From: an uncultured bacterium
GTDB taxonomy: Bacteria; Abyssobacteria; SURF-5
Assembly: GCA_964607485.1 (NCBI GenBank)
Contig: CAZSKP010000021.1
Location: 1-64,000, forward strand
Direction: 5' to 3'
Length of the DNA: 64,000 bases
The notes under the pieces were generated by a model. That model had not been told where the DNA came from, searched no databases, and saw only the letters and a list, made by a program, of their open reading frames with translations. Below are positions 11,403 to 56,930 of the stretch, piece after piece. Both the position numbers and the translations under genes were made by a program. Within the stretch, counting starts at the first letter, position 1. Each line of letters begins with the position of its first letter.

Positions 11403-11890
11403 ACCGAAATCCTCTCCTTTCGACCTTGGTAAGACCGAAATTCCTGGCAGATCAAATGTTGGGCCGGCTTGCCAAGTGGCTGCGGCTCTTGGGTTATGAC
11501 ACGCGCTACGCGAGCGGCATCGACGATGCCGACATCCTCGACCTTGCGGAATCGGAGCGACGAACCATATTGACGCGCGACACCCTGCTCATACGGCGGA
11601 AACGCTGTCGAAATTATATCTTCATCAAGAGCGACCACTGGCGCGAGCAATTGAAGCAAGTGTACCTCGATGCCGGGCTCACCTGCGATTCGGCGCTGAC
11701 CATATGCGCGCTCTGCAACAGCCCGCTTTCTCCCGTCGATAAACGAGAGGTGGAGTCGCTTGTGCCTCCGTATGTGTACGCCACTCAGGAAACGTTTTCA
11801 AAATGCGAGAACTGCTCGCGTGTGTTCTGGTCGGCAACCCACGTGAGCCGGATACTTGACGAACTCAGAAACTTGAAGGAGGAGTCGTGA
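11399..11890 (+). CDS. Mut7-C RNase (PIN-fold plus Zn ribbon) domain protein
   Basis: FLADQMLGRLAKWLRLLGYDT, ILTRD, CALCN...CENCSRVFW; TTG start overlaps upstream stop. Confidence 0.88.
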   Translation: MNRNPLLSTLVRPKFLADQMLGRLAKWLRLLGYDTRYASGIDDADILDLAESERRTILTRDTLLIRRKRCRNYIFIKSDHWREQLKQVYLDAGLTCDSALTICALCNSPLSPVDKREVESLVPPYVYATQETFSKCENCSRVFWSATHVSRILDELRNLKEES

Positions 11891-13491
11891 CCATGCGCAG
11901 AGAGTTTTTGTGCCTTATTCTGGCGGCGCTGCTGCTGTTCGTCGGCTGTTCCGAGCGGGGACAGGACGTTGCGGGGGCCGAGCCGCAGAGCCCCGCCGTC
12001 TCGACGGCAGGCGTTCCCCCTGCCGTTCTTCCGCCGTCGGTCGCGGGCATGTTCTATCCCTTGGATGCCGAAACGCTCAGGGCCGACATAGCCCGATACT
12101 TGAAATCCGCGAATCCGCCCGAGATAGACGGAGAGATTGTGGCGGCCATTGTTCCCCATGCAGGTTACGCCTATTCGGCCCCAGTCGCCGCATACGCATA
12201 CAAGGCCATCGCACGTCAAGCCGAGAAGCAGGGGAGTGAGGCAAACAAGAAGTTGGACGCGGTCGTCATCCTCGCCTTCAGTCACAGAGGGAGTTTTGGG
12301 GGAGTGTCGGTTTACTACGATGGCGCCATGGAGACTCCTCTGGGGCGCAAGGCGGTGAATGAAAAGATCGCGCGTGCTTTCATGAACGCCGACCCGCGTC
12401 TGTCATTCGCGCTGCGCGCTTTCGTCGGCGAGCATTCCGCCGAGGTGCAGGTGCCCTTCATTCAGACGATTCTCCCCGACGTTCCCATAGTCCCCGTCAT
12501 CTTCGGTCAGCAGAATGCTTCCAACGTGGAGGCGGTCACTAAGGGGCTGGAGGAAATCGCGAAGGAAAATCACATCCTGGTCATCGCCACGACCGACCTC
12601 TCGCATTACAATCCTTACGAAAAAGCAAATTCATTGGATGCGGAGACCGTGCGGCTGATGGTGAAGGGCGATCCAAGGGAGATGGCCCAGTATGTGAGCG
12701 AGCACTACGACCGCATGTGCGGCCCCGGGCCGGTGCTCGCCGCCATGTCCTATGCGGAAAGCCAGAGAGCGACGCCGGTGCTGCTCAAGCATGCCAACTC
12801 CGGCGACACCGCCGGCGACAAGTCGGCGGTCGTAGGCTACGCCGCGGTGGTCTTTGTAAAGAAGAACGGCGCCGAGTCAACGGAAAAGAAACACGAGGCG
12901 TCGGCGGCTCACGAAAACGAAGCGGGCGAGTCGGATTCCAATTATCTCAACGAGGACGACAAAAATACTCTGCTCCAGCTCGCGCGGCGATCGCTCGAGT
13001 CCTTTGTGCGGGACAAGAGGCTTCTCGTCGTCGATGCGCCGGAGAGCGAAAGGCTGAGAGAAAACGGCGCGGCATTCGTCACACTCACGGAAAACGGACA
13101 GCTCCGCGGTTGTATCGGAAGCATGCAGCCCACGATGCCTCTGTACGAGACCGTGATTCGTATGGCTGCGGCGGTGGCATCGGAGGACCCGCGTTTCCCG
13201 CCGGTTCAGCCGAAGGAGCTGGACGACATTCGCATCGAAATTTCCGTCAATACTCCTCTCAGGGAAGTTTCAGGACCCGACGAAATCATCCTGGGAAAAC
13301 ACGGAGTCGTCGTCGCGAAAGGATTGCGACGGGGAGTCTTTCTCCCTCAGGTGGCGACGGAAACAGGCTGGACGAAGAAAGAATTTCTCGAAAACTTGTG
13401 CGCGCACAAGGCCGGACTTCCGCCCGACGCGTATAAGAAGGATGCCAAGCTGTACGTGTTCTCGTCGATAGTCTTCGATGAGAAGGATTAG
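11887..13491 (+). CDS. AmmeMemoRadiSam protein B (Memo) + protein A (AMMECR1) fusion with lipoprotein-type signal
   Basis: Memo motifs PHAGYAYS, EHSAEVQ, DLSHY, MCG, VVGY; AMMECR1 motifs LRGCIG, DPRF, FLPQV, KAGL; N-terminal LLLFVGC. Confidence 0.9.
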   Translation: MTMRREFLCLILAALLLFVGCSERGQDVAGAEPQSPAVSTAGVPPAVLPPSVAGMFYPLDAETLRADIARYLKSANPPEIDGEIVAAIVPHAGYAYSAPVAAYAYKAIARQAEKQGSEANKKLDAVVILAFSHRGSFGGVSVYYDGAMETPLGRKAVNEKIARAFMNADPRLSFALRAFVGEHSAEVQVPFIQTILPDVPIVPVIFGQQNASNVEAVTKGLEEIAKENHILVIATTDLSHYNPYEKANSLDAETVRLMVKGDPREMAQYVSEHYDRMCGPGPVLAAMSYAESQRATPVLLKHANSGDTAGDKSAVVGYAAVVFVKKNGAESTEKKHEASAAHENEAGESDSNYLNEDDKNTLLQLARRSLESFVRDKRLLVVDAPESERLRENGAAFVTLTENGQLRGCIGSMQPTMPLYETVIRMAAAVASEDPRFPPVQPKELDDIRIEISVNTPLREVSGPDEIILGKHGVVVAKGLRRGVFLPQVATETGWTKKEFLENLCAHKAGLPPDAYKKDAKLYVFSSIVFDEKD

Positions 13492-13628
13492 CATCTTTAG
13501 TGCCAACGCTCGTGACTCTGCACACTTTTCTCGAAGAAGAAATTTTTTTGTTGACAAAACATTTTTAGCTGGTATGATAGCACTGTTTTTGTTCATTCGA
13601 GGTTTGTTTCAGCTGCGCGGGAATCTCT

Positions 13629-14054
13629 ATGAAGGCACGCCCCAAGAAGTGTCGTCGCTCCTCCGAGAAACAATCCGCACCCAAGAAAAAGATTCTCATC
13701 ATCGATGCCGACCTCGTGATGACCGAGCTGTTGCGGAGTTATCTCGGACAAGAGAAGGGGTTCGAAGTATTGACGGCGGAGACGGGCGCCGATGGCATAA
13801 GGACGGCAATAGAACACCAGCCCGATCTCATCCTGCTTGACTTTCGGCTCAGCGACATGAGAGGACTGGAGGTGCATGAAAGGCTGCGACAAAACTCGAC
13901 CGCAAGGGAAACACCCGTAATCTACGTCTCCTATTTCCTCACCCTTCGCGCGATTGAAGAAGCGACAGGCAAAGGCGCCCGGGGATTCATCAGCAAACCC
14001 TTCAACCTGTCGCAAATGTACACGAAAGTGGCAAACGTCCTCAGCTCCTCGTAG
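13629..14054 (+). CDS. single-domain response regulator
   Basis: KILIID, PDLILLD, KPF; upstream TTGACA-16-TATGAT (13551-13578). Confidence 0.88.
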   Translation: MKARPKKCRRSSEKQSAPKKKILIIDADLVMTELLRSYLGQEKGFEVLTAETGADGIRTAIEHQPDLILLDFRLSDMRGLEVHERLRQNSTARETPVIYVSYFLTLRAIEEATGKGARGFISKPFNLSQMYTKVANVLSSS

Positions 14055-14061
14055 CCGCCCC

Positions 14062-14721
14062 CTAGATTTCGTTTTCGCCGAGCAGAGTTCCGACCGCGTC
14101 CCTCCGTATCGCTATACCCTTCACGCATCTGCACTGCGAACAATCCGCACAACGCTCGACGCCAAGCGACATCGCCTGCGAGCGTCTGTCCTCTTTGTCG
14201 CGTGAGTCGAGATGCAGTTGCGCGAGTCTCACGAAAACGTACGGCCCGCCGAAGCCGTCATCGTTCCAATCGAAATGGGGACAACTGGACATGCAGCCGT
14301 AACATTCCAGGCACCCAATCAATCGCTTGTAGACTTCCGCGACGGGCATGGCGGCCAGAGGCTGCTCCACGCCGGGCGAGACATAGAGACGCAGCGTCGA
14401 GATTCTCCGGTCGATGACCGACCTGTCCACGACAAGGTCTCTGATGGGCGGCAGGTTCTTCAGGGGAGAAATCCGCATTCCCTCCGTCGCCCGGGTGAGA
14501 CAGGCAAGGCGCGGGCTGCCATTTACATCGACCGCACACTCCCCGCACTTCGCCGAGCGGCACCCGTACCTGAACGCCAGCGTCGAATCGTAGTTCTCGA
14601 AGATGTGCAGGAGAGCCTGCAGCACGGTCGCGCCCTCTTCCAGCAGAACGGAGTAACTATGCCCGATGCATTTCGCTTGCTCCGGGTCATAACGCTCGAC
14701 GAACACGTTTCCGTCCTGCAT
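14062..14721 (-). CDS. SdhB/FrdB-like iron-sulfur subunit
   Basis: CRSAKCGEC...LAC (2Fe-2S), IRDLVVD, CLECYGCMSSCP, CADCSQCRC; start overlaps flavoprotein stop. Confidence 0.85.
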   Translation of the reverse strand: MQDGNVFVERYDPEQAKCIGHSYSVLLEEGATVLQALLHIFENYDSTLAFRYGCRSAKCGECAVDVNGSPRLACLTRATEGMRISPLKNLPPIRDLVVDRSVIDRRISTLRLYVSPGVEQPLAAMPVAEVYKRLIGCLECYGCMSSCPHFDWNDDGFGGPYVFVRLAQLHLDSRDKEDRRSQAMSLGVERCADCSQCRCVKGIAIRRDAVGTLLGENEI

Positions 14722-16544
14722 CACGCATCTTCTCCGAGATTCAAACGAGAGTCGAGAATTTTCGCCTGCGTTTTTCGTGGGAGCCGGCTGAGGATGAAGA
14801 ATTGGAGTCTCTCGCGATTGGGGTTCGGTCCCCCTTTGGTGCCGAGACCGAATTTCGACAACGCGACAGGTTCGGCCCTGACAGACAGCGCGTCGCCGTC
14901 CATTCGCACTATGACGTTTTGCAGCCATCTCTTGTCGTCGCGTTTGGGATGGTCGAGCCTGACGTGCCCGCCCCGCGATTCCTCGCGCGCCTTCGCGCTG
15001 CGCGCGACGACCTCGGCGACGATGAGCATCTTCTCGAGTTCCAGCGCGTCGCTCCATTCGGGATTGCAGTCTCGCCGGCTCGACACGCTCACGTCGTCGC
15101 GCTGCGTCACTATCTCCGAAATCTCTTCGAGCGCACGGTCGAGCCGCGCTGCATCCCGGATGGGCCCGACGTTTTTCCACATCGCTCTCTGGAGTCTTCG
15201 CACGAGTTCGATCGGCCTGTGCGCGCCCGACCTTCCCAGCAGGCCTTCCGCGTGCGAGCGCGACTGCTCAGCCGTATCGAAATCTGCCGCCGGCTGCTTG
15301 CGGTTCGCCGCCGCCTCGGCCGCGGCCTTGCCCGCGAGGCTTCCGAAGATAAACAGTTCTGCCAGAGACGTGGAGCCGATGCGGTTCGCTCCGTAGAGTC
15401 CGCCCTGCGCCTCGCCGACGGCGAAGAGGTTGTCAACGCCCTGCACTCGGCAATCGGTATCGACTCTCACTCCGCCCAATTGGTAGTGGCCCGTCGGAAA
15501 GACGTCCCAGGGAACCTGCCCGCGAGCGGCCTCCTCGCCGTACGCACGCCTGACGACCTCTGTCATCGACGGAAGCGTCCGCTTGAGGAATTCAAACATC
15601 TTAGCCCCGATGATTCCCCGAAAATTCGGCGACAGGTCGAGCAGCATGCCCCCGTGTTCGGTGGCGCGGCCGCGTTCTTTTGCGAGCGACATCGCCGCCG
15701 CGACCCTCGCGCGGGTCATCGTCCGAATGCGGGGCAGTACTTCCTTGCCTTTCGCGTCCAGAAGTTTGCCGTAGGGTCCGGCGATGGCGGGCTCGCCGCA
15801 GACGATGCCGATCATCGAGGCGGGGTGGGTGAGTGCGAAGGGGATGAATTGCTGGTGCTCCATGTCGGTGAGCTCGGCGCCGGCCTCGAGCGCGAGCGCG
15901 TAGCCGTCGCCCGTGAGCGCGCGCGAGTTGCTCGTGTGCGGATAGAAAATCCAGCCAAGCCCGCCCGCGGCGAGAATCGTCTGCTTCGCCGCGATGGCCA
16001 CCATCTCGCCTGTGAGCCACCTGAGACAGAGCGCCCCTTCGACGGCTCGCCCGTTTCGGAGCAACTTCACGGCGAGCGTCTCGTCGAGCACATCAACTCC
16101 TGCGCGGGCGGCGGCCGCCCTGAGGGCAGTGCCGATAGGAATCGCCTCGGAGTAACCCGGCTGGGTGCGCGGCAGGCTGTGTCCGCCCAGCGGGGCGGGC
16201 AGGGGAGCCAATTCGCCGGAAGGTTTTCGGGCGAAGATAATGCCGAACCGTTCCATCAGCTCGGTGGCAAGGTGGGCGCGCTCGCAGTATTTCTCGACGA
16301 GCGTTTGATCGTTCAGGAATCCGCCTCCGACGATGATGTCGCGCATGAGGGCATCGGGGGAGTCCTTCGGCGAGATGTTCGGCCGCAGCACCAGTCCGGC
16401 GGCGATGCGGGTGTTGCCGCAGCCGTAGGGTCCCTTTGAGATAATCAGGGCGTTCGCACCCGCCTCGGCGGCCGCGACGGCGGCCACGATTCCGGCCCCG
16501 CCGGCGCCGATGCAGAGGACGTCGCATTCGATACGCCTGACCAT
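14721..16544 (-). CDS. SdhA/FrdA/NadB-superfamily FAD oxidoreductase, non-canonical active site
   Basis: IGAGGAG, GGHS..R, TGDG, HYQLGG, GANRIGSTSL, REESRGGH. Confidence 0.85.
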   Translation of the reverse strand: MVRRIECDVLCIGAGGAGIVAAVAAAEAGANALIISKGPYGCGNTRIAAGLVLRPNISPKDSPDALMRDIIVGGGFLNDQTLVEKYCERAHLATELMERFGIIFARKPSGELAPLPAPLGGHSLPRTQPGYSEAIPIGTALRAAAARAGVDVLDETLAVKLLRNGRAVEGALCLRWLTGEMVAIAAKQTILAAGGLGWIFYPHTSNSRALTGDGYALALEAGAELTDMEHQQFIPFALTHPASMIGIVCGEPAIAGPYGKLLDAKGKEVLPRIRTMTRARVAAAMSLAKERGRATEHGGMLLDLSPNFRGIIGAKMFEFLKRTLPSMTEVVRRAYGEEAARGQVPWDVFPTGHYQLGGVRVDTDCRVQGVDNLFAVGEAQGGLYGANRIGSTSLAELFIFGSLAGKAAAEAAANRKQPAADFDTAEQSRSHAEGLLGRSGAHRPIELVRRLQRAMWKNVGPIRDAARLDRALEEISEIVTQRDDVSVSSRRDCNPEWSDALELEKMLIVAEVVARSAKAREESRGGHVRLDHPKRDDKRWLQNVIVRMDGDALSVRAEPVALSKFGLGTKGGPNPNRERLQFFILSRLPRKTQAKILDSRLNLGEDA

Positions 16545-16551
16545 TGACGCG

Positions 16552-16893
16552 CTATTCTATCTCTATTTCCTTGACGGCGAGCTCCATCCCTTCAATCACA
16601 TCCACGTCTTTCGATTCACATTCGGGACAGAGGAACTCGTAGTTCTGCACCATGAAAACGTGTTCGCAGGCTTTGCATCCCGCCTTGATGGGCACGCGCT
16701 CGACTTCAAGCGCCGCCCCCTCGGCGGGAGTGTCCTTCGTGACGAAGCCGAAGAAGAACGAAAGCTGGTCGGGCACTATGCCTCGAAGCTCGCCCGCGCG
16801 TATGCGGACCGTCCGGATTTTTGTCGCGCCGTTTCGCTGGGCCTCGGCGAGCACGATTCTCAGAATGCTTTGCGCTACCGACATCTCATGCAT
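16552..16893 (-). CDS. hypA: nickel metallochaperone HypA
   Basis: MHE N-terminus, two CxxC motifs. Confidence 0.95.
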   Translation of the reverse strand: MHEMSVAQSILRIVLAEAQRNGATKIRTVRIRAGELRGIVPDQLSFFFGFVTKDTPAEGAALEVERVPIKAGCKACEHVFMVQNYEFLCPECESKDVDVIEGMELAVKEIEIE

Positions 16894-16912
16894 GAAACAC
16901 TCGCCCTCGGCG

Positions 16913-17980
16913 CTACATCTTTCCCTTTTCCTGCATTATCGAACTCATCAGGTCGCGGAAGTTGCGTTTCGGCTCGGCGAGCTCTTCCCTTCTTCTCATC
17001 GATAGAGACTCCGTCGGGCACACCATGTTGCACAGCCCGCAGCCGAGACATTTCTCCGGATCGACTTCGGCGACCTCGTTGACCGTGAGCGCGCCGAAAT
17101 GGCACCTCTCGACGCACGCTTCGCACGCGGAGCACGTGTCGTAATCTATCTCGACGACGAAATGCGACGTGGCGACCGCGTGGGGCTTGTGCAGCCGTGT
17201 TATTCCACCCAGGATGCCGCAGCAACATCCGCAGCAGTTGCAGATGAAGTTGACGTGCTTCTGGGTGTTGTCGGAAAGATGCACGAGGCCTTCCTTTTCT
17301 GCCGTGTCGAGGACCCTGTAGGCCTCTTCCTTCGTAATCCTGCGGCCGAAGCCTCGTTCGACGACGTACCTTGCGAACGGGCCGAACTGGAGGCAGACGT
17401 CCTTCGGCCTGCCGCACGACTTGCCCAGCAGCTCCATCTCATGCCGGCAGTAGCACACCGAGAGCGCAAGCTCGTCCGCGTCCTGGATGAATTCCGAGAC
17501 GCGCTCGTACGGAAACACCTCGACGCCGCTGGGTATCTCTTTCTCCATGACGACGACGCGCGCCATCTGCGTTCTTGACGCAAAGAGGTCTTCGGCCCAG
17601 CCGGAGTGCCACATCGCATCGAAGAGGCCCGCCAGCTTCTTCGTTCTGTCGTTCACCTCGCCCTTCATAAACTGAAGCTCGAAGATGCCGGGCACGAGCG
17701 GGAACAGACTGTAGTAGTCCACCCCATCCTGCTTCCGGTGATAGGCAAGGCCCTTGTTGGCCATCGACTCGAGGATGGGCTTGAGCTCCGCCTCGTCGCG
17801 TCCGAGCGTCTCGCAGATGGAAGCGAGCGGGGAGGGGAGTATGGGCATGTCGGCCCCCACCTTTGCCTCGTCATCTGTGAAGAGTGTCTTCAGCAGCTTG
17901 ACAAATTCCTCCGTCTTCGGTGCGCCGGCGGGGAATTGGTTAAGCTTGTCGATGAGTTGTTCATACACGTTTGCAGCCAC
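16913..17980 (-). CDS. 4Fe-4S dicluster protein with winged-helix-like N-terminus
   Basis: CYCR, CNCCGCCC, CSACEACVERCH, CLGCGLCNMVCP. Confidence 0.85.
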   Translation of the reverse strand: MAANVYEQLIDKLNQFPAGAPKTEEFVKLLKTLFTDDEAKVGADMPILPSPLASICETLGRDEAELKPILESMANKGLAYHRKQDGVDYYSLFPLVPGIFELQFMKGEVNDRTKKLAGLFDAMWHSGWAEDLFASRTQMARVVVMEKEIPSGVEVFPYERVSEFIQDADELALSVCYCRHEMELLGKSCGRPKDVCLQFGPFARYVVERGFGRRITKEEAYRVLDTAEKEGLVHLSDNTQKHVNFICNCCGCCCGILGGITRLHKPHAVATSHFVVEIDYDTCSACEACVERCHFGALTVNEVAEVDPEKCLGCGLCNMVCPTESLSMRRREELAEPKRNFRDLMSSIMQEKGKM

Positions 17981-18023
17981 TGTTACCTCCTCTGAAGCTC
18001 CTCGCTGTTGCGTTTTCTCTTTG

Positions 18024-18710
18024 TTACTTCTTTCGGCCTTTCTTTGTTTGTTTCCCGCGCTTTGCTGCCAATTCTTTTGTCAACCATTCGAGCCACGCAT
18101 CGAGTCCTTCGCACGTGGTGCAGGACATCGGGAATATCGCCAGCTTCGGATTAATCTTCGAGGCATTCGTTCTGGCCTCGTCCATCTTGAAGTTCGTGTA
18201 GGGAAGAAGGTCCACCTTGTTGATGAGCATCGCGGAAGATTCGCGGAACATGAGCGGATATTTCAAGGGCTTCTCGTCGCCTTCGGTCACACTGAGCATC
18301 ATCACCTTGTGGTCCTCGCCGACCTTGAATTCGGCAGGGCAGACGAGATTGCCGACGTTTTCTATGATGAGGATGTCGATAGTCGAGCAATCGAGGTTTC
18401 CGAGCGCGCCTCTTACCATGTTGGCGTCGAGATGGCACGCGCTGCCGGTATTTATCTGGACGATGGGGACGTCGAATCCCTGAAGGCGGTCGGCGTCGCG
18501 GGTCGTTTCGATGTCACCCTCCACGATGCCCACGCGCACGCCTTGCGGCTTGAGTTTTTCGATGGTGCGTTCGAGCAGCGTCGTCTTGCCGGCTCCAGGC
18601 GAACTCATCAGGTTTATGGCAAGCACCTTGTTCGCGTCCAGCGTAGCCCGGATTTCCTCGGCGATTACATCGTTTGCTTTCAGAATGTTGTCGAGAACGG
18701 TTATCTTCAT
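18024..18710 (-). CDS. hypB: nickel-insertion GTPase HypB
   Basis: SSPGAGKT, ACHLDA, ENVGNLVCPA, KPLKYP, NKVD; no His-rich N-terminus. Confidence 0.95.
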   Translation of the reverse strand: MKITVLDNILKANDVIAEEIRATLDANKVLAINLMSSPGAGKTTLLERTIEKLKPQGVRVGIVEGDIETTRDADRLQGFDVPIVQINTGSACHLDANMVRGALGNLDCSTIDILIIENVGNLVCPAEFKVGEDHKVMMLSVTEGDEKPLKYPLMFRESSAMLINKVDLLPYTNFKMDEARTNASKINPKLAIFPMSCTTCEGLDAWLEWLTKELAAKRGKQTKKGRKK

Positions 18711-18732
18711 TTTCGTAAACTCCGCGTTGTTA

Positions 18733-19887
18733 TCATGTGAAGGCGCCTATGCCCGTGGCGAACCTGCCGATTACCAGCTTCAATATCTGGCTGGTTCCCT
18801 CGTACAGGCTGGCGACGCGCGCGTCGCGCATGTATCGCTCGACCGGATACTCGTTGGAGTAGCCGTAGCCGCCAAAGACCTGGATGGCTCGGTTGCCACA
18901 CCTGAGCGCCGCCTCGGATGCGTAGAGCTTTGCGATGGAGGTCTCGCGCGTGTTTCCCTCGCCCTTGTTCTTCAGGTGTCCGGCCTGGAAAACAAGCAAC
19001 CGAGCGGCCTCGGTGTCGACGACCATGTCGGCGATCAGCTCCTGCACGAGCTGGAAGCCCGCGATGGGCCGTCCGAACGCCGTCCGTTCCTGCGAATATT
19101 TCACGCTCGCGTCGATGCAGGCCTGGCAGATGCCCACGCAGCCCGCGGCGACGCTGTACCGCCCGTTGTCGAGCGCGCTCATGGCGACCTTGAAACCTTC
19201 GCCGACTTTGCCCAGCAGCGAGTCGTCGCTCACCTTCACGTCCTCAAGCGTGAGCGAGGAAGTGTCGGACGACTTGAGCCCCAGCTTGCCGTGTATCGGC
19301 TGCGACGAGAAGCCATCCGTGTCCGTATCGACCAGAAACGCGGCGATGCCCTTGTGCTTCAGTTTCTTGTCGGTCTGGGCGAAGATGATGGCGAGCTTTG
19401 CGACGCCGCCGTTGGATATCCACATCTTGTTTCCGTTCAGCACCCACTCGGCGCCTTTCTTCTTCGCCGAGGTGGAAAGGTTGGCGGCATCGCTTCCGGC
19501 GTCGGGCTCCGTGAGCCCGAAGCATCCGATAATCTCGCCGGAGGAGAGCTTCGGCAGGTATTTCTTCTTCTGCTCTTCGGTTCCCCATTTGAGTATGGTG
19601 AGCGCGACAAGCGAGGAGGTGACCGAGAGAACGGTGCGCACGGACGAGCAGGCGCGGCCGATTTCCTCGGTCACGAGGGCGTATGAAATGAAGTCCATGC
19701 CCGCACCGCCGTATTTTTCGGGTATCGCCGCGCCGAGGAATCCGAGGTCGCCCATCTTCTTGACGATCTCGGCGGGAAATCTTTCCTGCTCATCGTTCTC
19801 GCGCGCGACGGGCACTATTTCCTTTTCTGCGAAATCCCTCGCGGTTTGTCGCGCCGCCCTTTGTTCATCCGTCAACTCGATGTGCAT
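18733..19887 (-). CDS. acyl-CoA dehydrogenase
   Basis: FGLTEPDAGSD, KMWISNG, RTAFGRPI, GGYGY, YEGTSQI. Confidence 0.95.
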   Translation of the reverse strand: MHIELTDEQRAARQTARDFAEKEIVPVARENDEQERFPAEIVKKMGDLGFLGAAIPEKYGGAGMDFISYALVTEEIGRACSSVRTVLSVTSSLVALTILKWGTEEQKKKYLPKLSSGEIIGCFGLTEPDAGSDAANLSTSAKKKGAEWVLNGNKMWISNGGVAKLAIIFAQTDKKLKHKGIAAFLVDTDTDGFSSQPIHGKLGLKSSDTSSLTLEDVKVSDDSLLGKVGEGFKVAMSALDNGRYSVAAGCVGICQACIDASVKYSQERTAFGRPIAGFQLVQELIADMVVDTEAARLLVFQAGHLKNKGEGNTRETSIAKLYASEAALRCGNRAIQVFGGYGYSNEYPVERYMRDARVASLYEGTSQILKLVIGRFATGIGAFT

Positions 19888-19934
19888 AGACAATTCCTTT
19901 CGTTGAGCGAATCGGGTCCTGCTCTGAGAGCTCG

Positions 19935-21341
19935 CTACCTGACGAGGAGTTTATCCACTATTCGCGTGAGCTGCCGGGCGTTGCGGCATTCATGAACTTC
20001 GTCACAATATGGCATGTACTCATACATAACGCTATCGCCCAGCCGCCAGGCCGGACGCGCCTCGGGGTTCAGCCATATGACGCGTTTCGCCTTCTCGGTC
20101 ATGTCCTTGAACGCCCACACGCGGGGGTCGTTGCGATTGTTGCGCGCATCGCCCATTATAATCAACGTCGTCCTGGACGTGACGGACTCGAGAAACTCGT
20201 TGCGGAACCGGTGAAACGCGTAGCCGAAATTGCTGTGGCCGTTGTAATCGACGAGCCGCGAATGAAGCGCGAGCTCCAGCGCGGCGTTTATCTCATGTTC
20301 GGAGAACAACCGAGTGACCTCTCCGATTTCCGTCACGAACACGAACGTGCGGACCTTCGAGAAAAGCTCCTGAAGCGTGTACAGGAATTGGAGCATGAAG
20401 CGTGCGGCGTAGCTTACGGAATCCGAGATGTCGCAGAGCGCGAAAATCTGCGGCTTTTCCCGCCGCCGGTTCTTGTAGCAGAGCTCCATCGGGACTCCGC
20501 CGTACTGCATATTTTGCCGGATGACGCGCTTCACGTCTATCCGGCCGCGGGGCCTGCGCTTGTTGCGGAGCACGAGCCGGTCCTTCATTTTCCTGGCAAG
20601 CCGGGCGACGATATCCCGCATCAGTTCCATCTCACGCCTGGAGAGCTGATAGAAATTCTTGTTGAGGAGCTCCTCCTCCCTCAATCGCTCCATGTTGCTG
20701 AGCATATTCTTTTCGAGCTCGCGGCGCACGAATTCCCTGATGGCCTCAAACACACGCTGTATGCGTTGCTCGATAAATTGAATGAGCCTATCCACCTCCT
20801 CGGGCGAATAGCCCTGTCCGAGGAGTTCCTGCCTGAGTTTTTCGATCTCCTCGGCAAACAAATTCCAGCCGAGGCTGTCACGGATTTTCCTTGAAAAGAA
20901 GCCGACCTGCAGGGGATTGCTTATCTCGCTCAGGCCGGCAGCCATTCCCTGCTCCATCATTGTCATCTGAAAATCGCCTCCGAGCTGCCACTGGAACAGA
21001 TTGGCGAGATTCTCGAAGAGTTCGCGGTTTTCTTCGAGGAACGAATCGAGGAACTCCTGCATCGTGACCGAGCCGAACGGAAACAAGCCCAGGTCGGTTT
21101 CGTCGTCCTCGCCGGCGGGCGGTTTCGAAAGTGAGGTGAAGTAGAGTTCGAAAAGCTTTTCGAATATGGGAATGTCGGCGGATTTCTTCACGAGCGTGGA
21201 GCGCAGCGCGGCCTTGAACGTCGGCTTGTGCTCCAGCCCAAGTATTTCCAAGGCGCGGAAGCAGTCGATGTTCTCTGAGAGCGCCACTCTCACGCCTGAA
21301 CTGCGGAGAGCGTCGATGAATTCCAGAATTTTTTCGTCCAT
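19935..21341 (-). CDS. CoxE-like VWA domain protein
   Basis: MIDAS DISDS, GDARNN, WLNPE, ECRN. Confidence 0.9.
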   Translation of the reverse strand: MDEKILEFIDALRSSGVRVALSENIDCFRALEILGLEHKPTFKAALRSTLVKKSADIPIFEKLFELYFTSLSKPPAGEDDETDLGLFPFGSVTMQEFLDSFLEENRELFENLANLFQWQLGGDFQMTMMEQGMAAGLSEISNPLQVGFFSRKIRDSLGWNLFAEEIEKLRQELLGQGYSPEEVDRLIQFIEQRIQRVFEAIREFVRRELEKNMLSNMERLREEELLNKNFYQLSRREMELMRDIVARLARKMKDRLVLRNKRRPRGRIDVKRVIRQNMQYGGVPMELCYKNRRREKPQIFALCDISDSVSYAARFMLQFLYTLQELFSKVRTFVFVTEIGEVTRLFSEHEINAALELALHSRLVDYNGHSNFGYAFHRFRNEFLESVTSRTTLIIMGDARNNRNDPRVWAFKDMTEKAKRVIWLNPEARPAWRLGDSVMYEYMPYCDEVHECRNARQLTRIVDKLLVR

Positions 21342-21354
21342 AGAGCGGGTCGCG

Positions 21355-22281
21355 TCAGTTGAGTTTTTCGTCCGCGGCTGAGAGCAAGCTCTGCAGATTG
21401 GACCTGACCTTTTTTATGTCTCCCTCGTACTTCAGAAACAGGTTGAGCGTGGACTTCACCGTTTCCTCGTCGAGCGTGTCGATGTTCAGGATGGTAAGCG
21501 CGCGAGCCCAGTCGAGCGTTTCGCTGATGCTCGGAAGCTTCTTCAGGTCCACCTTGCGCACTTTCTGTATCACGTCGATCACCCGGGTTGCGAGCGTCTG
21601 GCTTATGCCGGGAACCTTGAGCCTCACAATCTCGGTCTCCTGCTCGGCCGACGGAAAATCGATGAACAGGTGCAGGCAGCGTCTCTTGAGTGCGTCGGTC
21701 ATCTCACGAGTGTTGTTGCTCGTGAGAACGACGTGGGGGATGTGTTTCGCCTTGAGGGTGCCCAGCTCCGGTACGCTGACCTGAAAGTCGCTGAGCACCT
21801 CGAGGAGGAACGCCTCGAACTCCGGGTCGGCCTTGTCAACCTCGTCGATGAGAAGGACCGCCCTTTCTTCGGAGAGGATGGCTCGAAGCAGGGGGCGGGG
21901 GAGTATGAACTCTTCCGAGAAGAAGACGTCCTCCTGTTTATCTATCTTATCGACGGCCTCGCTCAGGCTCTTGCAGTCGCTCAGCACCTCATTGATTTTT
22001 TCCTTGAGTATCTGCGTGTAGAGAAGCTGTTTGGCATATTCCCACTCGTACAGCGCCTTGCTCTCATCCAGCCCCTCGTAACACTGCATCCGAATCAGCC
22101 TCATGCCCGTCGCCTGAGCCCACACGCCGGCAAGGCTCGTTTTCCCCACGCCGGCGGGACCTTCGACGAGGATCGGCTTTTGCATCCGCTCCGCGAGGTA
22201 GACGACGGTCGAGATTTCCTTGCTGCAGATGTAGTCCTGCTTCTTGAATTCTCGGGCGATTTCCTCTATCGAACCGAACAT
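21355..22281 (-). CDS. MoxR-family AAA+ ATPase (CoxD-like)
   Basis: EGPAGVGKT, QCYEGLD..KALYEW.Y.KQLL, IDEVDKAD, ALKRRC. Confidence 0.92.
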   Translation of the reverse strand: MFGSIEEIAREFKKQDYICSKEISTVVYLAERMQKPILVEGPAGVGKTSLAGVWAQATGMRLIRMQCYEGLDESKALYEWEYAKQLLYTQILKEKINEVLSDCKSLSEAVDKIDKQEDVFFSEEFILPRPLLRAILSEERAVLLIDEVDKADPEFEAFLLEVLSDFQVSVPELGTLKAKHIPHVVLTSNNTREMTDALKRRCLHLFIDFPSAEQETEIVRLKVPGISQTLATRVIDVIQKVRKVDLKKLPSISETLDWARALTILNIDTLDEETVKSTLNLFLKYEGDIKKVRSNLQSLLSAADEKLN

Positions 22282-22285
22282 GCCA

Positions 22286-22879
22286 TCAGCCCTTCTTTCT
22301 GGTTGTTTTGCTCCTGGTCGAATTCTTCTTGAGCTCGCTTGCGAGCAGATCGTTTGCCCATTCGATTCTGAGTCTTTGTGTTGCGATACCGAAGTCCACG
22401 ATCTTTAGCTTATACGAGTTCAGCCCGCGTTCGCGCATTTCCTCGCGCAACTGTTCGTACTCCGTTACCTTCTGCTCTGCTCCCTCTATCTGACGCCTGA
22501 GCTTGGCCAATCGTTCGCGTTTCGGGAGATGCTCGAAGAAATTGCACTTCATGAGGAAGCTGTACTGCATGAAGAAGTCGCACTTGACCGGGTCGATTTC
22601 GTCCTCGGAGCCTTTGAGCCAATGAAAAAACTCCTCGCGGCCGCGGTCGGTGATATGGTAGAGGTTCTTGTTCGGGGATTTCTGCTGGCGGACGGTTTCC
22701 TTGCGGACGAGCTTCTCCTTCTCAAGCTGGGTCAGCACGGGATAAAGCTGTCCGTCGTTGAGACCGTTCCTGGCGACGAAGGGCGCAAATATCTTCTTTA
22801 TCCGATACCCGTGCGCCGGGCACTGCATCAACACCCCGAGGATGGCGTGCTTCGTGCTCATTTTCGGTCGGAATTTCAT
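22286..22879 (-). CDS. PadR-family transcriptional regulator
   Basis: HAILGVL..PAHGY, GQLYPVL, YHITDRG; C-terminal helical domain. Confidence 0.9.
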   Translation of the reverse strand: MKFRPKMSTKHAILGVLMQCPAHGYRIKKIFAPFVARNGLNDGQLYPVLTQLEKEKLVRKETVRQQKSPNKNLYHITDRGREEFFHWLKGSEDEIDPVKCDFFMQYSFLMKCNFFEHLPKRERLAKLRRQIEGAEQKVTEYEQLREEMRERGLNSYKLKIVDFGIATQRLRIEWANDLLASELKKNSTRSKTTRKKG

Positions 22880-23011
22880 GAAAGGCGCTCGTACCTATCG
22901 TTAAGGTATCTTACAGTTAGGTACTATCCTATCAGATTGCCCAACGGAAGTCAACTGGGACGCGGACACGCCGGCCGGACACCCGAGAGCCGCCTCGCGG
23001 TTGATAAAAAG

Positions 23012-23041
23012 ATGGCATCCGACGAATTCGTCGGATGCCAT
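23012..23041. repeat. perfect 30-bp palindrome; probable rplM-rpsI terminator or REP-like element
   Basis: ATGGCATCCGACGAATTCGTCGGATGCCAT is self-complementary and is followed on the minus strand by CTTTTT. Confidence 0.8.
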
Positions 23042-24350: not shown

Positions 24351-25196
24351 CTAGATGCTGTTCTCTATGCAGCGCTCAACGACCTCTCGCGTCACCCTCG
24401 ATTCGCCCCGCATGGACGCCTCGAGGAGCGAGTTGTCGGCAAGCTTGCTTACCTCCCGGCAGATTCCTGCTGAATGCGCGTGTATGACGTCGAAGGTTTC
24501 TTGGTCGAACAACTCTTCGGTAGAGCCGGCGACCATCAGCCTGAACTTGATGTACTGCTCGGTTTCCGGGCGCGACATGGGCATCAGATATGAGGCCATC
24601 GCGATTCTGCCCCGAAGGGAGCTGTACCTCTTGTGGCGAAGGCGTCGCAGAAAAGTTTCCTCGGCGAGCATGATGACGGTGCACAGCTTTTCCTGAGGGG
24701 TTTCCATGTTCGTGAGCGCGCGTATCATGTGAAGCTGGTCCGACAACAGGAAGTGCGACTCGTCAACGATCAACACCACGCGCTGTCCCTTGCCGTACGC
24801 CGACATCAGGAAGGAATGGATGCTTTCGAGCAACGTCTGCGTGTTTTCTCTCCCGGAGGGACGGGGAACCTCCAGCTCGTCGAGTATGCATCCGAGAAGC
24901 CCCATCTTGCTCATTCCCGGATTAGCCAGAACAACCGCCGGAATGAATTCGCTCTCGCTCAATGCGCTGAGCAGCATCTGGGCGAGGAGGGTTTTCCCCG
25001 TGCCGCTGCGTCCCCACACCAGCCCGAGCGCCTTATGATGCCGTGCACACATCATCATCCGCACGAACGCCGTCTCGTGAGCCTCGGTCCTGTAGAAGAA
25101 CTCGGGATTCACGCTGTCGCTGAACGGGACTCGCGTCAAGCCGAAGTGTTCGCAATAGTCAAGCGCCATATCCAACCGCCTTGCTGCTACTTCCAT
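24351..25196 (-). CDS. ExeA/GspA/MshM-like AAA ATPase (ATPase domain only)
   Basis: Y.EHFGL...PF, GRSGTGKT, LIVDESH, YIKFRL..AG, GICR. Confidence 0.88.
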   Translation of the reverse strand: MEVAARRLDMALDYCEHFGLTRVPFSDSVNPEFFYRTEAHETAFVRMMMCARHHKALGLVWGRSGTGKTLLAQMLLSALSESEFIPAVVLANPGMSKMGLLGCILDELEVPRPSGRENTQTLLESIHSFLMSAYGKGQRVVLIVDESHFLLSDQLHMIRALTNMETPQEKLCTVIMLAEETFLRRLRHKRYSSLRGRIAMASYLMPMSRPETEQYIKFRLMVAGSTEELFDQETFDVIHAHSAGICREVSKLADNSLLEASMRGESRVTREVVERCIENSI

Positions 25197-25238
25197 ACAT
25201 AAATCTCCTGTTTGTTTGAGAAACCCCGACCCAATTAC

Positions 25239-26348
25239 CTATTCGGCTGTTGCCGCTGCCAATACGGAGCAGCGCTCAACAAACACGCCAAAACCCGTCC
25301 CCTCCATTCGAGGGCGGGGTGATGCCGTTCCCTTCTCCAACAGCGTGCGCGCGAGTCTTCTCACCGCCGCAGAGGCCCTCGACTGAGGGTATCCGACCGA
25401 AAACGGTACGCGCTCGTCCACCGCGCGCCGCACATGCGAGTCCTCCCAGATATGCCCCAGTTCAAGCAACGAGCGGGCAAGAAAGCGTCGCGTGCAATCG
25501 GAGATGCGCCCGAGGGTCGCCGCTCCCTCGCGCGCGCTTCTTACGCGGTTCGCCACCACGCCTATACGGCAATATGGGCTGCGCTGAAATGTGAGTTTGA
25601 TCAGGGCATAGGCGTCTGCGATCGCGGTCGTTTCGGGTGTCGTGACGACAAGCACGAAGTCGGAGGAAACCAAGAAGTCGAGCACGCTGCCGCCGACGCC
25701 CGCCGCTGTGTCGATGAGGATCACGTCGTACCGCGATTCAAGTTTCCTCAACCCGGCCAGCAGCGTCTGACGCCTGTGCGCCGGCAGGTTCGCCATCTCG
25801 AATATCCCCGACGAGCCGGGCACGATGTCGGGCCCACCGGGCATCCTTGCTATTATCTCGTCGATCGCGCATTCTCCCGAGATGACATGCGTGAGCGTGC
25901 GGTCGGTCGTCAGCCCGGCCAGCAGATGGAGGTTCGCCACCCCGAGGTCGGCATCCATCACCGCCGTCCGCAGGCCCTCTCTTGCCAGCTCCACGGAGAG
26001 GTTCAACGCGACGTTGCTCTTTCCGACGCCTCCCTTGCCGCTGGTTATCGCAATCAACTTGCCGGCGTTCAGGCCGTTCCGGCCTACGCCGTTCGAGCCC
26101 CCGGTCCATCCCGATGGGTCGGCGAGCATCTTGGACAGGTGGGTCCTGAGCGCAGTGGGTGCAAGGCCGTCCTTCAGCAGGCGATTCGCCGCGGCCAATA
26201 TCTTCAGGTCGCTCGTGGAATACGTGCGGGGAATCTCCAGGCGCGAGAGCGAGAGAAAATCCTGACAGTGCATCTCCAAGAATCTGAATCGGGCAGGCTC
26301 AATGCCCAGCAGCTTGGCTGCCTCGTGTGTCTTCAAGCGATTGTTCAC
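25239..26348 (-). CDS. MerR-type HTH fused to FlhG/MinD-family ATPase
   Basis: N-terminal EAAKLLGI...RTYS..DL; deviant Walker A SGKGGVGKS, DADLG, IDTAAG, TTPE...DAYALIK; amphipathic tail GFGVFVER. Confidence 0.85.
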   Translation of the reverse strand: MNNRLKTHEAAKLLGIEPARFRFLEMHCQDFLSLSRLEIPRTYSTSDLKILAAANRLLKDGLAPTALRTHLSKMLADPSGWTGGSNGVGRNGLNAGKLIAITSGKGGVGKSNVALNLSVELAREGLRTAVMDADLGVANLHLLAGLTTDRTLTHVISGECAIDEIIARMPGGPDIVPGSSGIFEMANLPAHRRQTLLAGLRKLESRYDVILIDTAAGVGGSVLDFLVSSDFVLVVTTPETTAIADAYALIKLTFQRSPYCRIGVVANRVRSAREGAATLGRISDCTRRFLARSLLELGHIWEDSHVRRAVDERVPFSVGYPQSRASAAVRRLARTLLEKGTASPRPRMEGTGFGVFVERCSVLAAATAE

Positions 26349-45304: not shown

Positions 45305-45488
45305 GAAATCCCTGCCATGCTCGTGAAGACACGACAATTTTGAGCCAACACACCAAAGAACGGGAGCCCTAAATTTTCGGGTAGATTGCACGCCGCCTCG
45401 GCGCGGAAGCACGAAGCTTGGATGCGGGCGCCCACGTGAACCGCAAGGTTCAACACGTCTCGTCTCACGGCATAACGGCGGGGATTTT
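45305..45488 (+). ncRNA. ssrS: 6S RNA
   Basis: ~185-nt rod: ATCCCTGCC-ATGC-CGTGA pairs with TCACG-GCAT-GGCGGGGAT; TTGAGCC/GGTTCAA and GGGAGCCC/GGGCGCCC flank an A-rich central bubble. Confidence 0.8.
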
Positions 45489-56858: not shown

Positions 56859-56930
56859 TGGGGAGTCGCCAAGCGGTAAGGCATCGGCCTTTGGAGCCGA
56901 CATGCGCAGGTTCGAATCCTGCCTCCCCAG
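56859..56930 (+). tRNA. tRNA-Gln (anticodon UUG)
   Basis: Acceptor TGGGGAG/CTCCCCA, anticodon arm TCGGC-CTTTGGA-GCCGA, T-loop GGTTCGAATCC; 3' end reads CCG so CCA is not encoded; promoter TTGACA-17-TAACAT at 56757-56785. Confidence 0.97.

Follow-up and report, generated by a model that had tools for sequence, protein, structure and literature searches.

A window of 64,000 nucleotides (positions 1 to 64,000 of contig CAZSKP010000021.1, GenBank assembly GCA_964607485.1) from an uncultured bacterium of the lineage Abyssobacteria (SURF-5) was analysed, with attention to nine minus-strand genes that include hypA and hypB. The gene located between hypB and hypA encodes a cysteine-rich iron-sulfur (Fe-S) protein which stands alone and, as judged by alignment, is homologous to the module of approximately 325 residues at the N-terminus of proteins resembling IsrA, a putative isoprene reductase. 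The reading that we favour, at about even chances of being right, is that the nine genes constitute a real operon whose core is a variant of the isr-type cassette with split subunits; HypA and HypB would insert nickel into the Fe-S protein, and this protein would form a complex with the products of two genes similar to sdhA and sdhB. On this reading, the Fe-S protein would probably represent a new type of redox enzyme subunit that depends on nickel.

Families were assigned with Pfam and NCBIfam profiles. The nine genes, listed from padR onwards, were as follows.

22286-22879, minus strand: padR, PadR-family regulator, 197 aa (PF03551, 62 bits; PF10400, 34 bits)
21355-22281, minus strand: MoxR/CoxD-type AAA ATPase, 308 aa (PF07728, 45.9 bits)
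19935-21341, minus strand: VWA_CoxE-domain protein, 468 aa (PF05762, 133.7 bits)
18733-19893, minus strand: acyl-CoA dehydrogenase, 386 aa (PF02771, PF02770 and PF00441)
18024-18710, minus strand: hypB, HypB GTPase, 228 aa (TIGR00073, 268.6 bits)
16913-17980, minus strand: Fe-S protein gene, 355 aa, proposed client of HypA and HypB
16552-16893, minus strand: hypA, HypA, 113 aa (PF01155, 120.8 bits; TIGR00100, 101.6 bits)
14721-16544, minus strand: SdhA/FrdA-like flavoprotein, 607 aa (PF00890 and PF02910)
14062-14724, minus strand: SdhB-like Fe-S subunit, 220 aa (PF13085, 91 bits; TIGR00384, 150 bits)

In this order the intergenic gaps down to sdhA were 4, 13, 41, 22, 43, 19, and 7 nt, and sdhA and sdhB overlapped by 4 nt. 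A preliminary description of this DNA had reported nine co-directional genes with all gaps below 50 nt and the Fe-S gene lying between hypB and hypA; the coordinates and strands recovered here agreed with it, the largest gap being 43 nt. The two motifs reported for the Fe-S protein were also recovered, CYCR at residues 176–179 and CNCCGCCC at residues 247–254.

The isr operon of Acetobacterium wieringae ISORED-2 has the order isrA-hypA-hypB-ferredoxin (350 aa)-hypA, and IsrA is described as a putative isoprene reductase in a host whose genome lacks NiFe hydrogenase (Kronen et al. 2023, PMC10134865; statements on this paper refer throughout to the parts of its text used here). The first approximately 270 aa of IsrA and of the ferredoxin encoded in the isr operon were reported to be mutually alignable, the Ni site of IsrA was proposed to be a Cys-rich "cluster V" with CxC motifs at 180–182 and 254–256, and 73% of 988 IsrA homologues were located no more than 5 genes from HypA (PMC10134865). 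When residues 1–275 of the Fe-S protein were used as the query, 79 longer proteins were matched with E values from 8e-30 to 2e-14. All 79 carried PF14691 and PF07992, which is the IsrA architecture, and nearly all were about 845–940 aa in length. In BLASTP against one IsrA-like protein (E = 7e-39), residues 8–339 aligned to its residues 9–325. Nine cysteines, together with R179 and N248, were kept in 13 of 13 IsrA-like N-termini and in 7 of 7 stand-alone proteins aligned. In these comparisons, IsrA-like database proteins stood in place of IsrA itself, and the kinship to the A. wieringae ferredoxin rests on both proteins aligning to IsrA-type N-termini. Because of this alignment and the nine shared cysteines, the Fe-S gene would be a stand-alone form of the module proposed to receive nickel in IsrA.

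The operon thus compared with isr as follows. The hypB/Fe-S (approximately 350 aa)/hypA block was present in the same order, as was homology over the N-terminal approximately 270 aa including the Cys-rich site with CxC near positions 180 and 254. Both hosts lack NiFe hydrogenase, and both operons encode a short-type HypB devoid of the N-terminal metal site. A fused IsrA-type oxidoreductase of approximately 900 aa was absent from the operon, and no single open reading frame (ORF) in the genome matched both halves of an IsrA-like query. The flavin partner in isr is a fused NfnB/GltD-like domain, whereas an SdhAB-like pair is encoded here; isr has two hypA genes and this operon has one; and the acyl-CoA dehydrogenase, the MoxR/VWA pair, and PadR are extra relative to isr.

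The Fe-S protein consists of a winged-helix domain (about residues 15–130), a middle domain containing nine cysteines, and a ferredoxin domain with 2×[4Fe-4S] (about residues 275–330). In an alignment of 50 relatives the nine middle-domain cysteines (C176, C178, C189, C196, C247, C249, C250, C252, and C254) were invariant, G251 was nearly invariant, and the C-terminal 2×[4Fe-4S] domain contained eight more cysteines. In the AlphaFold model (pLDDT 94), the first ~130 residues resembled ArsR/SmtB/MarR winged-helix proteins with Z about 6, accompanied by a weak TrmB match, and the C-terminus resembled ferredoxin domains. The family has at least 6873 relatives, annotated just as "4Fe-4S binding protein" or similar. 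Nine paralogues are encoded in this genome; genomes of the window's family within the phylum have 7 to 19 each, and the sister-family genome G001 has one. Genes neighbouring the paralogues in this genome include those for radical-SAM/SPASM proteins, TetR, GMC oxidoreductase, and NMO.

The A-cluster of acetyl-CoA synthase (ACS) contains a Cys-Gly-Cys nickel site bridged to a [4Fe-4S] cluster. By analogy only, the C-C-G-C stretch of the Fe-S protein, with its nearly invariant Gly in a Cys-rich Fe-S site, may be compared with it; neither by sequence nor by fold was any similarity of the Fe-S protein to the A-cluster detected. Kronen et al. noted that cluster V of IsrA resembles the A-cluster (PMC10134865).

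HypA scored above the cut-offs of both profiles (120.8 vs 28.9 bits for PF01155; 101.6 vs 88.1 bits for TIGR00100). It carries the N-terminal MHE nickel motif and two CxxC pairs forming the Zn site, and residues M1, H2, E3, C73, C76, C89, and C92 were invariant in 10 of 10 aligned sequences. HypB scored 268.6 bits against an equivalog cut-off of 121.2 bits (TIGR00073) and has the Cys-His metal motif of the G-domain ("GSACH...VCPAEF"); no N-terminal Cys or His metal site was present in its 228-aa sequence. HypA and HypB are the textbook maturases of hydrogenase and urease, and few classes of nickel enzymes are known. The two proteins share with their counterparts from [NiFe]-hydrogenase and Helicobacter urease systems the equivalog scores, the MHE motif, the Zn-site cysteines, and the G-domain Cys-His motif. 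They differ in that this genome lacks the hydrogenase large subunit, HypD, and urease, and in that the gene between hypB and hypA encodes no known client.

The assembly (4.70 Mb, 93 contigs) is 97.5% complete. The preliminary description had suggested that the remainder of the genome be searched for hydrogenase, carbon monoxide dehydrogenase (CODH)/ACS, urease, and xanthine-oxidase-family genes, and had named service of HypA and HypB to a hydrogenase encoded elsewhere as part of an outcome that would overturn it. Only CODH/ACS was found. No match was obtained in the whole genome for the [NiFe]-hydrogenase large subunit (PF00374), for HypD (PF01924; HypC, HypE, and HypF were not searched for genome-wide), for the urease alpha subunit, or for the xanthine-oxidase-family domain PF02738. 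With neither large subunit nor HypD, a [NiFe]-hydrogenase maturation system is not present, and no hydrogenase is available for HypA and HypB to serve. Both hypA and hypB occur in single copy (hypB by tblastn). The CODH/ACS cluster on contig C60 encodes a CooS-type protein of 660 aa, a CooF-like polyferredoxin, AcsB, AcsD, RACo, and AcsE. Three LarA-like genes were also found. Within the window, no gene for hydrogenase, CODH, urease, molybdenum hydroxylase, or hypCDEF was detected among the 45 other ORFs scanned, as had been reported before. The accompanying statement that no client enzyme was in view is probably wrong, given the IsrA-like module and the hypA adjacency; the Fe-S protein is itself the probable client.

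Another unusual locus with metallo-cluster genes was seen on contig C14 (82000-93000, L106). It contains genes for a GMC-type oxidoreductase, a 257-aa CdhC-like protein, a CooC-like ATPase, a double-cubane-cluster-type reductase, a HadB-like subunit, and an activase ATPase. The 257-aa protein matched only the A-cluster part of acetyl-CoA synthase (CdhC, 58 bits). Short CdhC-like ORFs of about 260–306 aa were present in 9 of 10 ACS-bearing genomes of the phylum, all except G003.

The GTDB phylum comprises 11 genomes, this one included. An orthologue of the VWA protein was found in 9 of the 11, hypA likewise in 9, and the NiFe large subunit in one. Six of the 10 other genomes have VWA, the Fe-S orthologue, and hypA together on one contig within about 5.5 kb, and the core order was kept across genera, with identity of the Fe-S protein down to 74%. 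All 10 hypA loci in the 9 phylum genomes directly adjoined a gene of the Fe-S family. One of them belongs to a second cassette in G008, consisting of genes for a CooC-like ATPase, a short-chain dehydrogenase/reductase, a CoA ligase, an Fe-S paralogue, HypA, and two reductases of the Old Yellow Enzyme type. The gene-neighbourhood comparison proposed in the preliminary description showed a conserved core order in the relatives, and hypA-Fe-S adjacency recurred in other phyla. Its alternative of a chance run of genes is rejected by this conservation. The nine genes are nevertheless not a fixed unit. G002 has the order acyl-CoA dehydrogenase-hypB-FeS-hypA-sdhA-sdhB, with VWA absent from the whole genome and the MoxR/VWA pair missing; G001, from another family of the phylum, has MoxR-VWA-acyl-CoA dehydrogenase, with no hypA in the genome and, by tblastn, no other gene of the operon in the 14 kb fetched around the locus; and on metagenome contig L152, MoxR-VWA is followed directly by hypB-FeS-hypA-sdhA, the dehydrogenase being missing. 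Since there are relatives without MoxR/VWA and relatives without the dehydrogenase, the constant core consists of hypB-FeS-hypA-sdhAB.

Relatives also possess a Cys-rich ORF of 266 aa between the VWA and acyl-CoA dehydrogenase genes (L007:5284-6084, L006, and L150), which the window lacks. It has two CxxCxxxCP-like motifs and no Pfam match at 1e-6; L152 retains only frame-shifted pieces of it (2448-2889).

Adjacency of hypA and the Fe-S gene was also observed outside the phylum. Eighty loci carrying the Fe-S protein were fetched and scanned with hidden Markov models; 9 contained hypA and 6 contained hypB. Of the 9 hypA loci, four belonged to the window's own clade and were left out, and hypA was immediately adjacent in 5 of the 76 distant loci. 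These came from Dehalococcoidales, a "Nitrospinae" metagenome-assembled genome (MAG), Syntrophothermus, and two related delta-proteobacterial MAGs, and their neighbours differed, including methylmalonyl-CoA-mutase-like genes, 2-hydroxyacyl-CoA-dehydratase-like genes, ArsR with a P-type ATPase, and FMN-reductase/SCP2 genes. At further hypA loci in genomes not chosen for adjacency, a gene with the nine-Cys domain was adjacent in 3 of 16. From one other phylum, 121 genomes were evenly drawn, 87 of which had hypA, and the best 30 hypA loci were examined; a nine-Cys domain gene was located within 1.5 kb of hypA in 5 of these 30, or 4 of 29 without an already-known genome. Three hydrogenase-bearing genomes had two hypA copies, one located by the hydrogenase genes and the other by the Fe-S gene. 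In a quick HypA tree, Fe-S-linked copies stood apart from the hydrogenase-linked second copies (5 label changes vs 10.0 on average after shuffling, with 1 of 500 shuffles giving a value as low), a clustering weakly supported in so short a protein. Hyp-linked Fe-S proteins occurred in at least 6 separate places of a quick family tree. Kronen et al. reported no general Hyp association for homologues of the isr ferredoxin (PMC10134865), and the association found here is that of a minority.

Among these cassettes, the one at L141 (G028, a genome with no NiFe large subunit) lies beside genes for a URO-D-type methyltransferase and a B12-binding protein, and those at L009 and L013 lie beside methylmalonyl-CoA-mutase-like and B12-binding genes.

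The SdhA-like protein aligned over its full length with E. coli FrdA and M. smegmatis SdhA (3p4p_A and 7d6v_A). The His for covalent FAD is replaced by Asn, His232 and Thr234 of the HPT motif by Ile and Phe, and the TEGxRGEGG loop is replaced, while equivalents of Arg287, His355, and Arg390 are kept (residue roles and numbering are presumed to be those of E. coli FrdA). Its TIGR01812 score was 321 vs 567 bits; it fell below all NCBIfam cut-offs of SdhA type, and TfrA was the best match. By score, covalent-FAD His, and dicarboxylate His/Thr, it does not belong to the succinate dehydrogenase/fumarate reductase flavoproteins. Because the FAD His, the HPT motif, and the TEGxRGEGG loop are altered, it is unlikely to be a fumarate or succinate enzyme; for its substrate, a reasonable guess would be a mono-carboxylate enoate or a thioester. 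The SdhB-like protein belongs to SdhB/FrdB (TIGR00384, 150 vs 88 bits) and has a 2Fe-2S motif and two Cys-cluster motifs; its best match, TfrB, was covered only over positions 5–212 of a 488-position model. The pair therefore shares with SdhAB/TfrAB the domain architecture, the Arg287/His355/Arg390 equivalents, and the SdhB cluster motifs, and differs in the lack of a membrane anchor and, in the SdhB-like protein, of the C-terminal half of TfrB.

The acyl-CoA dehydrogenase is butyryl-CoA-dehydrogenase-like, with all three domains of the family and the catalytic-Glu YEG motif ("LYEGT"). Its NCBIfam scores were below the cut-offs (AcrC, 425 vs 640 bits; non-decarboxylating glutaryl-CoA dehydrogenase, 391 vs 470 bits). 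About 30 paralogues are encoded in the genome, and the scan of the 45 other window ORFs revealed no gene for electron transfer flavoprotein. This dehydrogenase was considered as the hub of both maturation kits, and the idea was dropped on account of L152, where MoxR-VWA and hypB-FeS-hypA-sdhA occur without it. Its Cys motifs were likewise dropped as a cluster site, as reading of the sequences showed them not to be conserved between G000 and G001. The MoxR-type ATPase (by tblastn) and the VWA protein are each encoded by a single genome copy; their nearest NCBIfam families, MadB (345.2 vs 475 bits) and MadC (166.4 vs 600 bits), were not reached, and a meaning of "Mad" in these names was not found in the literature. 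Like CoxD/CoxE pairs, they comprise an AAA_5 ATPase of MoxR type followed by a VWA_CoxE protein. Unlike those pairs, they have no molybdenum hydroxylase client in the genome, and the core can do without the pair, which is missing from the whole G002 genome. Distant VWA_CoxE relatives (35–39% identity; L153-L155) were dropped as a functional clue since their contexts were unrelated.

In the scheme that follows, we infer nickel insertion, complex formation, direction of electron flow, and substrate. HypB, as the GTPase, and HypA would deliver nickel to the nine-Cys cluster site of the Fe-S protein or to a position beside it. Once matured, the Fe-S protein would form a soluble complex with the SdhAB-like pair, which would contain non-covalent FAD and three Fe-S clusters and would substitute for the NfnB/GltD-like flavin module fused in IsrA. 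Electrons may pass from FAD through the three SdhB clusters and the two ferredoxin clusters to the nine-Cys site, or in reverse, the pair exchanging them between its own substrate and that site. At the nine-Cys site, a redox step on a C=C or C-C bond of a poorly activated substrate is envisaged. The acyl-CoA dehydrogenase may feed or drain a CoA-ester substrate, MoxR/VWA may aid assembly, and PadR may sense a phenolic or hydrophobic effector; these three would be lineage-specific add-ons tying the module to acyl-CoA or phenolic-acid metabolism, assembly, and regulation. A putative role of the module in acyl-CoA or aromatic-acid catabolism is plausible. A wider proposal, possible but rather doubtful, is that the nine-Cys domain, here and in IsrA, holds a hitherto uncharacterised nickel-iron-sulfur cofactor installed by dedicated HypA/HypB paralogues and represents a new nickel class, namely modular reductases with flavin or molybdenum partners that act on unactivated C=C/C-C bonds, are widespread in anaerobes, and are the main reason for hypAB in the phylum.

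Several results weigh against nickel insertion into the Fe-S protein. Its middle domain had no fold match in PDB (Foldseek and VIA-align, searched within the whole model), its profile gave 0 matches to PDB sequences at E up to 10, Pfam gave none at E up to 10, and the Atlas gave no usable named match. A literature search aimed at IsrA and Hyp found no metal analysis or experiment on the family; the 2026 Pelotomaculum preprint, in the part of its text used here, contributes transcript data only. Only 1 of the 9 paralogues in this genome is hyp-linked, hyp adjacency is entirely absent from one clade of 39 rows in the family tree, and the majority of genes neighbouring the family have no relation to nickel. 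The family is carried without hypA by 7 of 26 other-phylum genomes, two isolates among them, and G001 has one paralogue yet no hypA. In 3 of the 4 newly found genomes with the hypA-Fe-S pair, a NiFe hydrogenase and a single hypA were present, and HypA there may therefore simply serve the hydrogenase; the adjacency at L143 is in a canonical cluster that includes hypF. Also to be counted here, the CODH/ACS cluster on C60 has no adjacent CooC gene, and in the phylum hypA (9 of 11 genomes), CODH (10 of 11), and ACS (10 of 11) are all missing together in G001. These last two points suit an explanation that we consider unlikely, in which the CODH and acetyl-CoA synthase on C60 are the enzymes that HypA and HypB mature, the Fe-S protein does no more than carry electrons for the flavoenzymes, and the gene order is a historical relic. 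Genome G019, from a phylum of 2 genomes, fits it as well, having one hypA, no hydrogenase, and one CODH. The presence of hypA tracks CODH/ACS in the phylum, and therefore co-occurrence cannot separate the two possible clients. Position and other genomes speak against this explanation: none of the phylum hypA genes is near CODH/ACS and 10 of 10 are beside the Fe-S family; G017 and G018 have the hyp-Fe-S pair without CODH; and the adjacency is also found in other phyla and in the isr operon, for whose host Kronen et al. argue that CODH/ACS has its own maturases (PMC10134865). In addition, three MinD-family ATPases with P-loop, CxC, and EAGxE motifs are encoded elsewhere in this genome; we take them to be CooC/AcsF-like from these motifs, their NCBIfam matches being weak and of MinD type only.

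The nickel client might instead be the SdhAB-like flavoenzyme, or the acyl-CoA dehydrogenase, with the Fe-S protein as a ferredoxin-like redox partner. Wherever a relative's contig extends far enough, the SdhAB-like genes come after hypA, and the SdhA-like active site is altered, but outside the phylum hypA-Fe-S occurs without the SdhAB-like genes or the dehydrogenase (L009, L013, L018, L070, L077, L129, L141, and L142), the dehydrogenase is absent from L152, an SdhAB-like paralogue on contig C2 (47% identity) has no hyp or Fe-S neighbour, and the nine-Cys module is the sole element common to the IsrA loci; we regard this explanation as very unlikely. Still less credence is given to the Fe-S protein being a redox- or metal-sensing regulator with HypA/HypB acting in metal homeostasis and not in enzyme maturation. 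The N-terminal domain mentioned above and the locus L018, where the Fe-S gene lies beside an ArsR regulator and a heavy-metal P-type ATPase, would fit such a role. Yet the winged-helix resemblance by structure is weak (Z below 8), IsrA-like proteins carry the module as a fusion with a flavin oxidoreductase, the numerous paralogues in the window's family lie beside many redox enzymes, and the operon has PadR already. That the genes are a chance or merely syntenic run, as the modular loss of MoxR/VWA, the dehydrogenase, or hyp-FeS-sdh in one relative or another could suggest, is scarcely credible in view of the tight gaps, the single promoter-like site before the unit, the core kept across genera, and the hypA-Fe-S adjacency across phyla. 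We retain the nickel-receiving Fe-S protein as the favoured reading. The preliminary description had proposed an undescribed redox module in which the Fe-S protein was a metal client or an electron carrier. The metal-client version is favoured because of the homology to the IsrA N-terminal module and the recurrence of hypA beside the family in several phyla; the module is not of an undescribed kind, the isr operon having been reported before (PMC10134865).

Two features were located upstream of the nine genes.

22926..22954, minus strand: sigma-70-like promoter match before padR, TTGACT-17-TAGGAT (a consensus match only, 9 of 12 positions)
23012..23041, minus strand: terminator-like hairpin with a 13-bp stem (8 GC) and T tail, closing the upstream rplM-rpsI unit

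The predicted hairpin after rpsI is taken as the 5′ boundary of the nine-gene operon, and a consensus scan revealed no comparably strong minus-strand terminator inside the unit. At the other end, a listed ORF at 14062-15180 (372 aa, overlapping sdhA by 460 nt) was an over-extended frame; the actual start of the sdhB-like gene is an internal ATG at 14724, giving the 4-nt overlap with the sdhA stop. An Rfam scan of the window showed no family near the operon, hence no metal riboswitch; the sole matches in the window were 6S RNA (45306-45488, 95.9 bits) and a tRNA (56859-56930). Convergent to the 3′ end of the operon, at 11887-14054, are genes for a Memo-AMMECR1 fusion protein (534 aa) and a stand-alone response regulator, a pair found in the same place in G002. 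Just upstream of rplM, on the same strand as the operon, 24351-26348 encodes an AAA_22 ATPase and an Mrp/NUBPL-like P-loop NTPase, the latter a possible Fe-S cluster carrier.

The isr-type kind, with its hypB/Fe-S/hypA block, has been known since 2023 (PMC10134865). What is new is the split-subunit architecture with an SdhAB-like partner, for which the literature search aimed at IsrA and Hyp found no paper; the demonstration that the nine cysteines are common to IsrA-like proteins; and the phylum-wide picture, in which hydrogenase is nearly absent and every hypA is beside the Fe-S family. The 355-aa protein provides a small, separable object for the question left from 2023, whether nickel occupies the Cys-rich site of IsrA-type enzymes. 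If the favoured reading is true, thousands of proteins now annotated as "4Fe-4S binding protein" would need re-annotation, and the use of hypAB in metagenomes as a marker of hydrogen metabolism would change.

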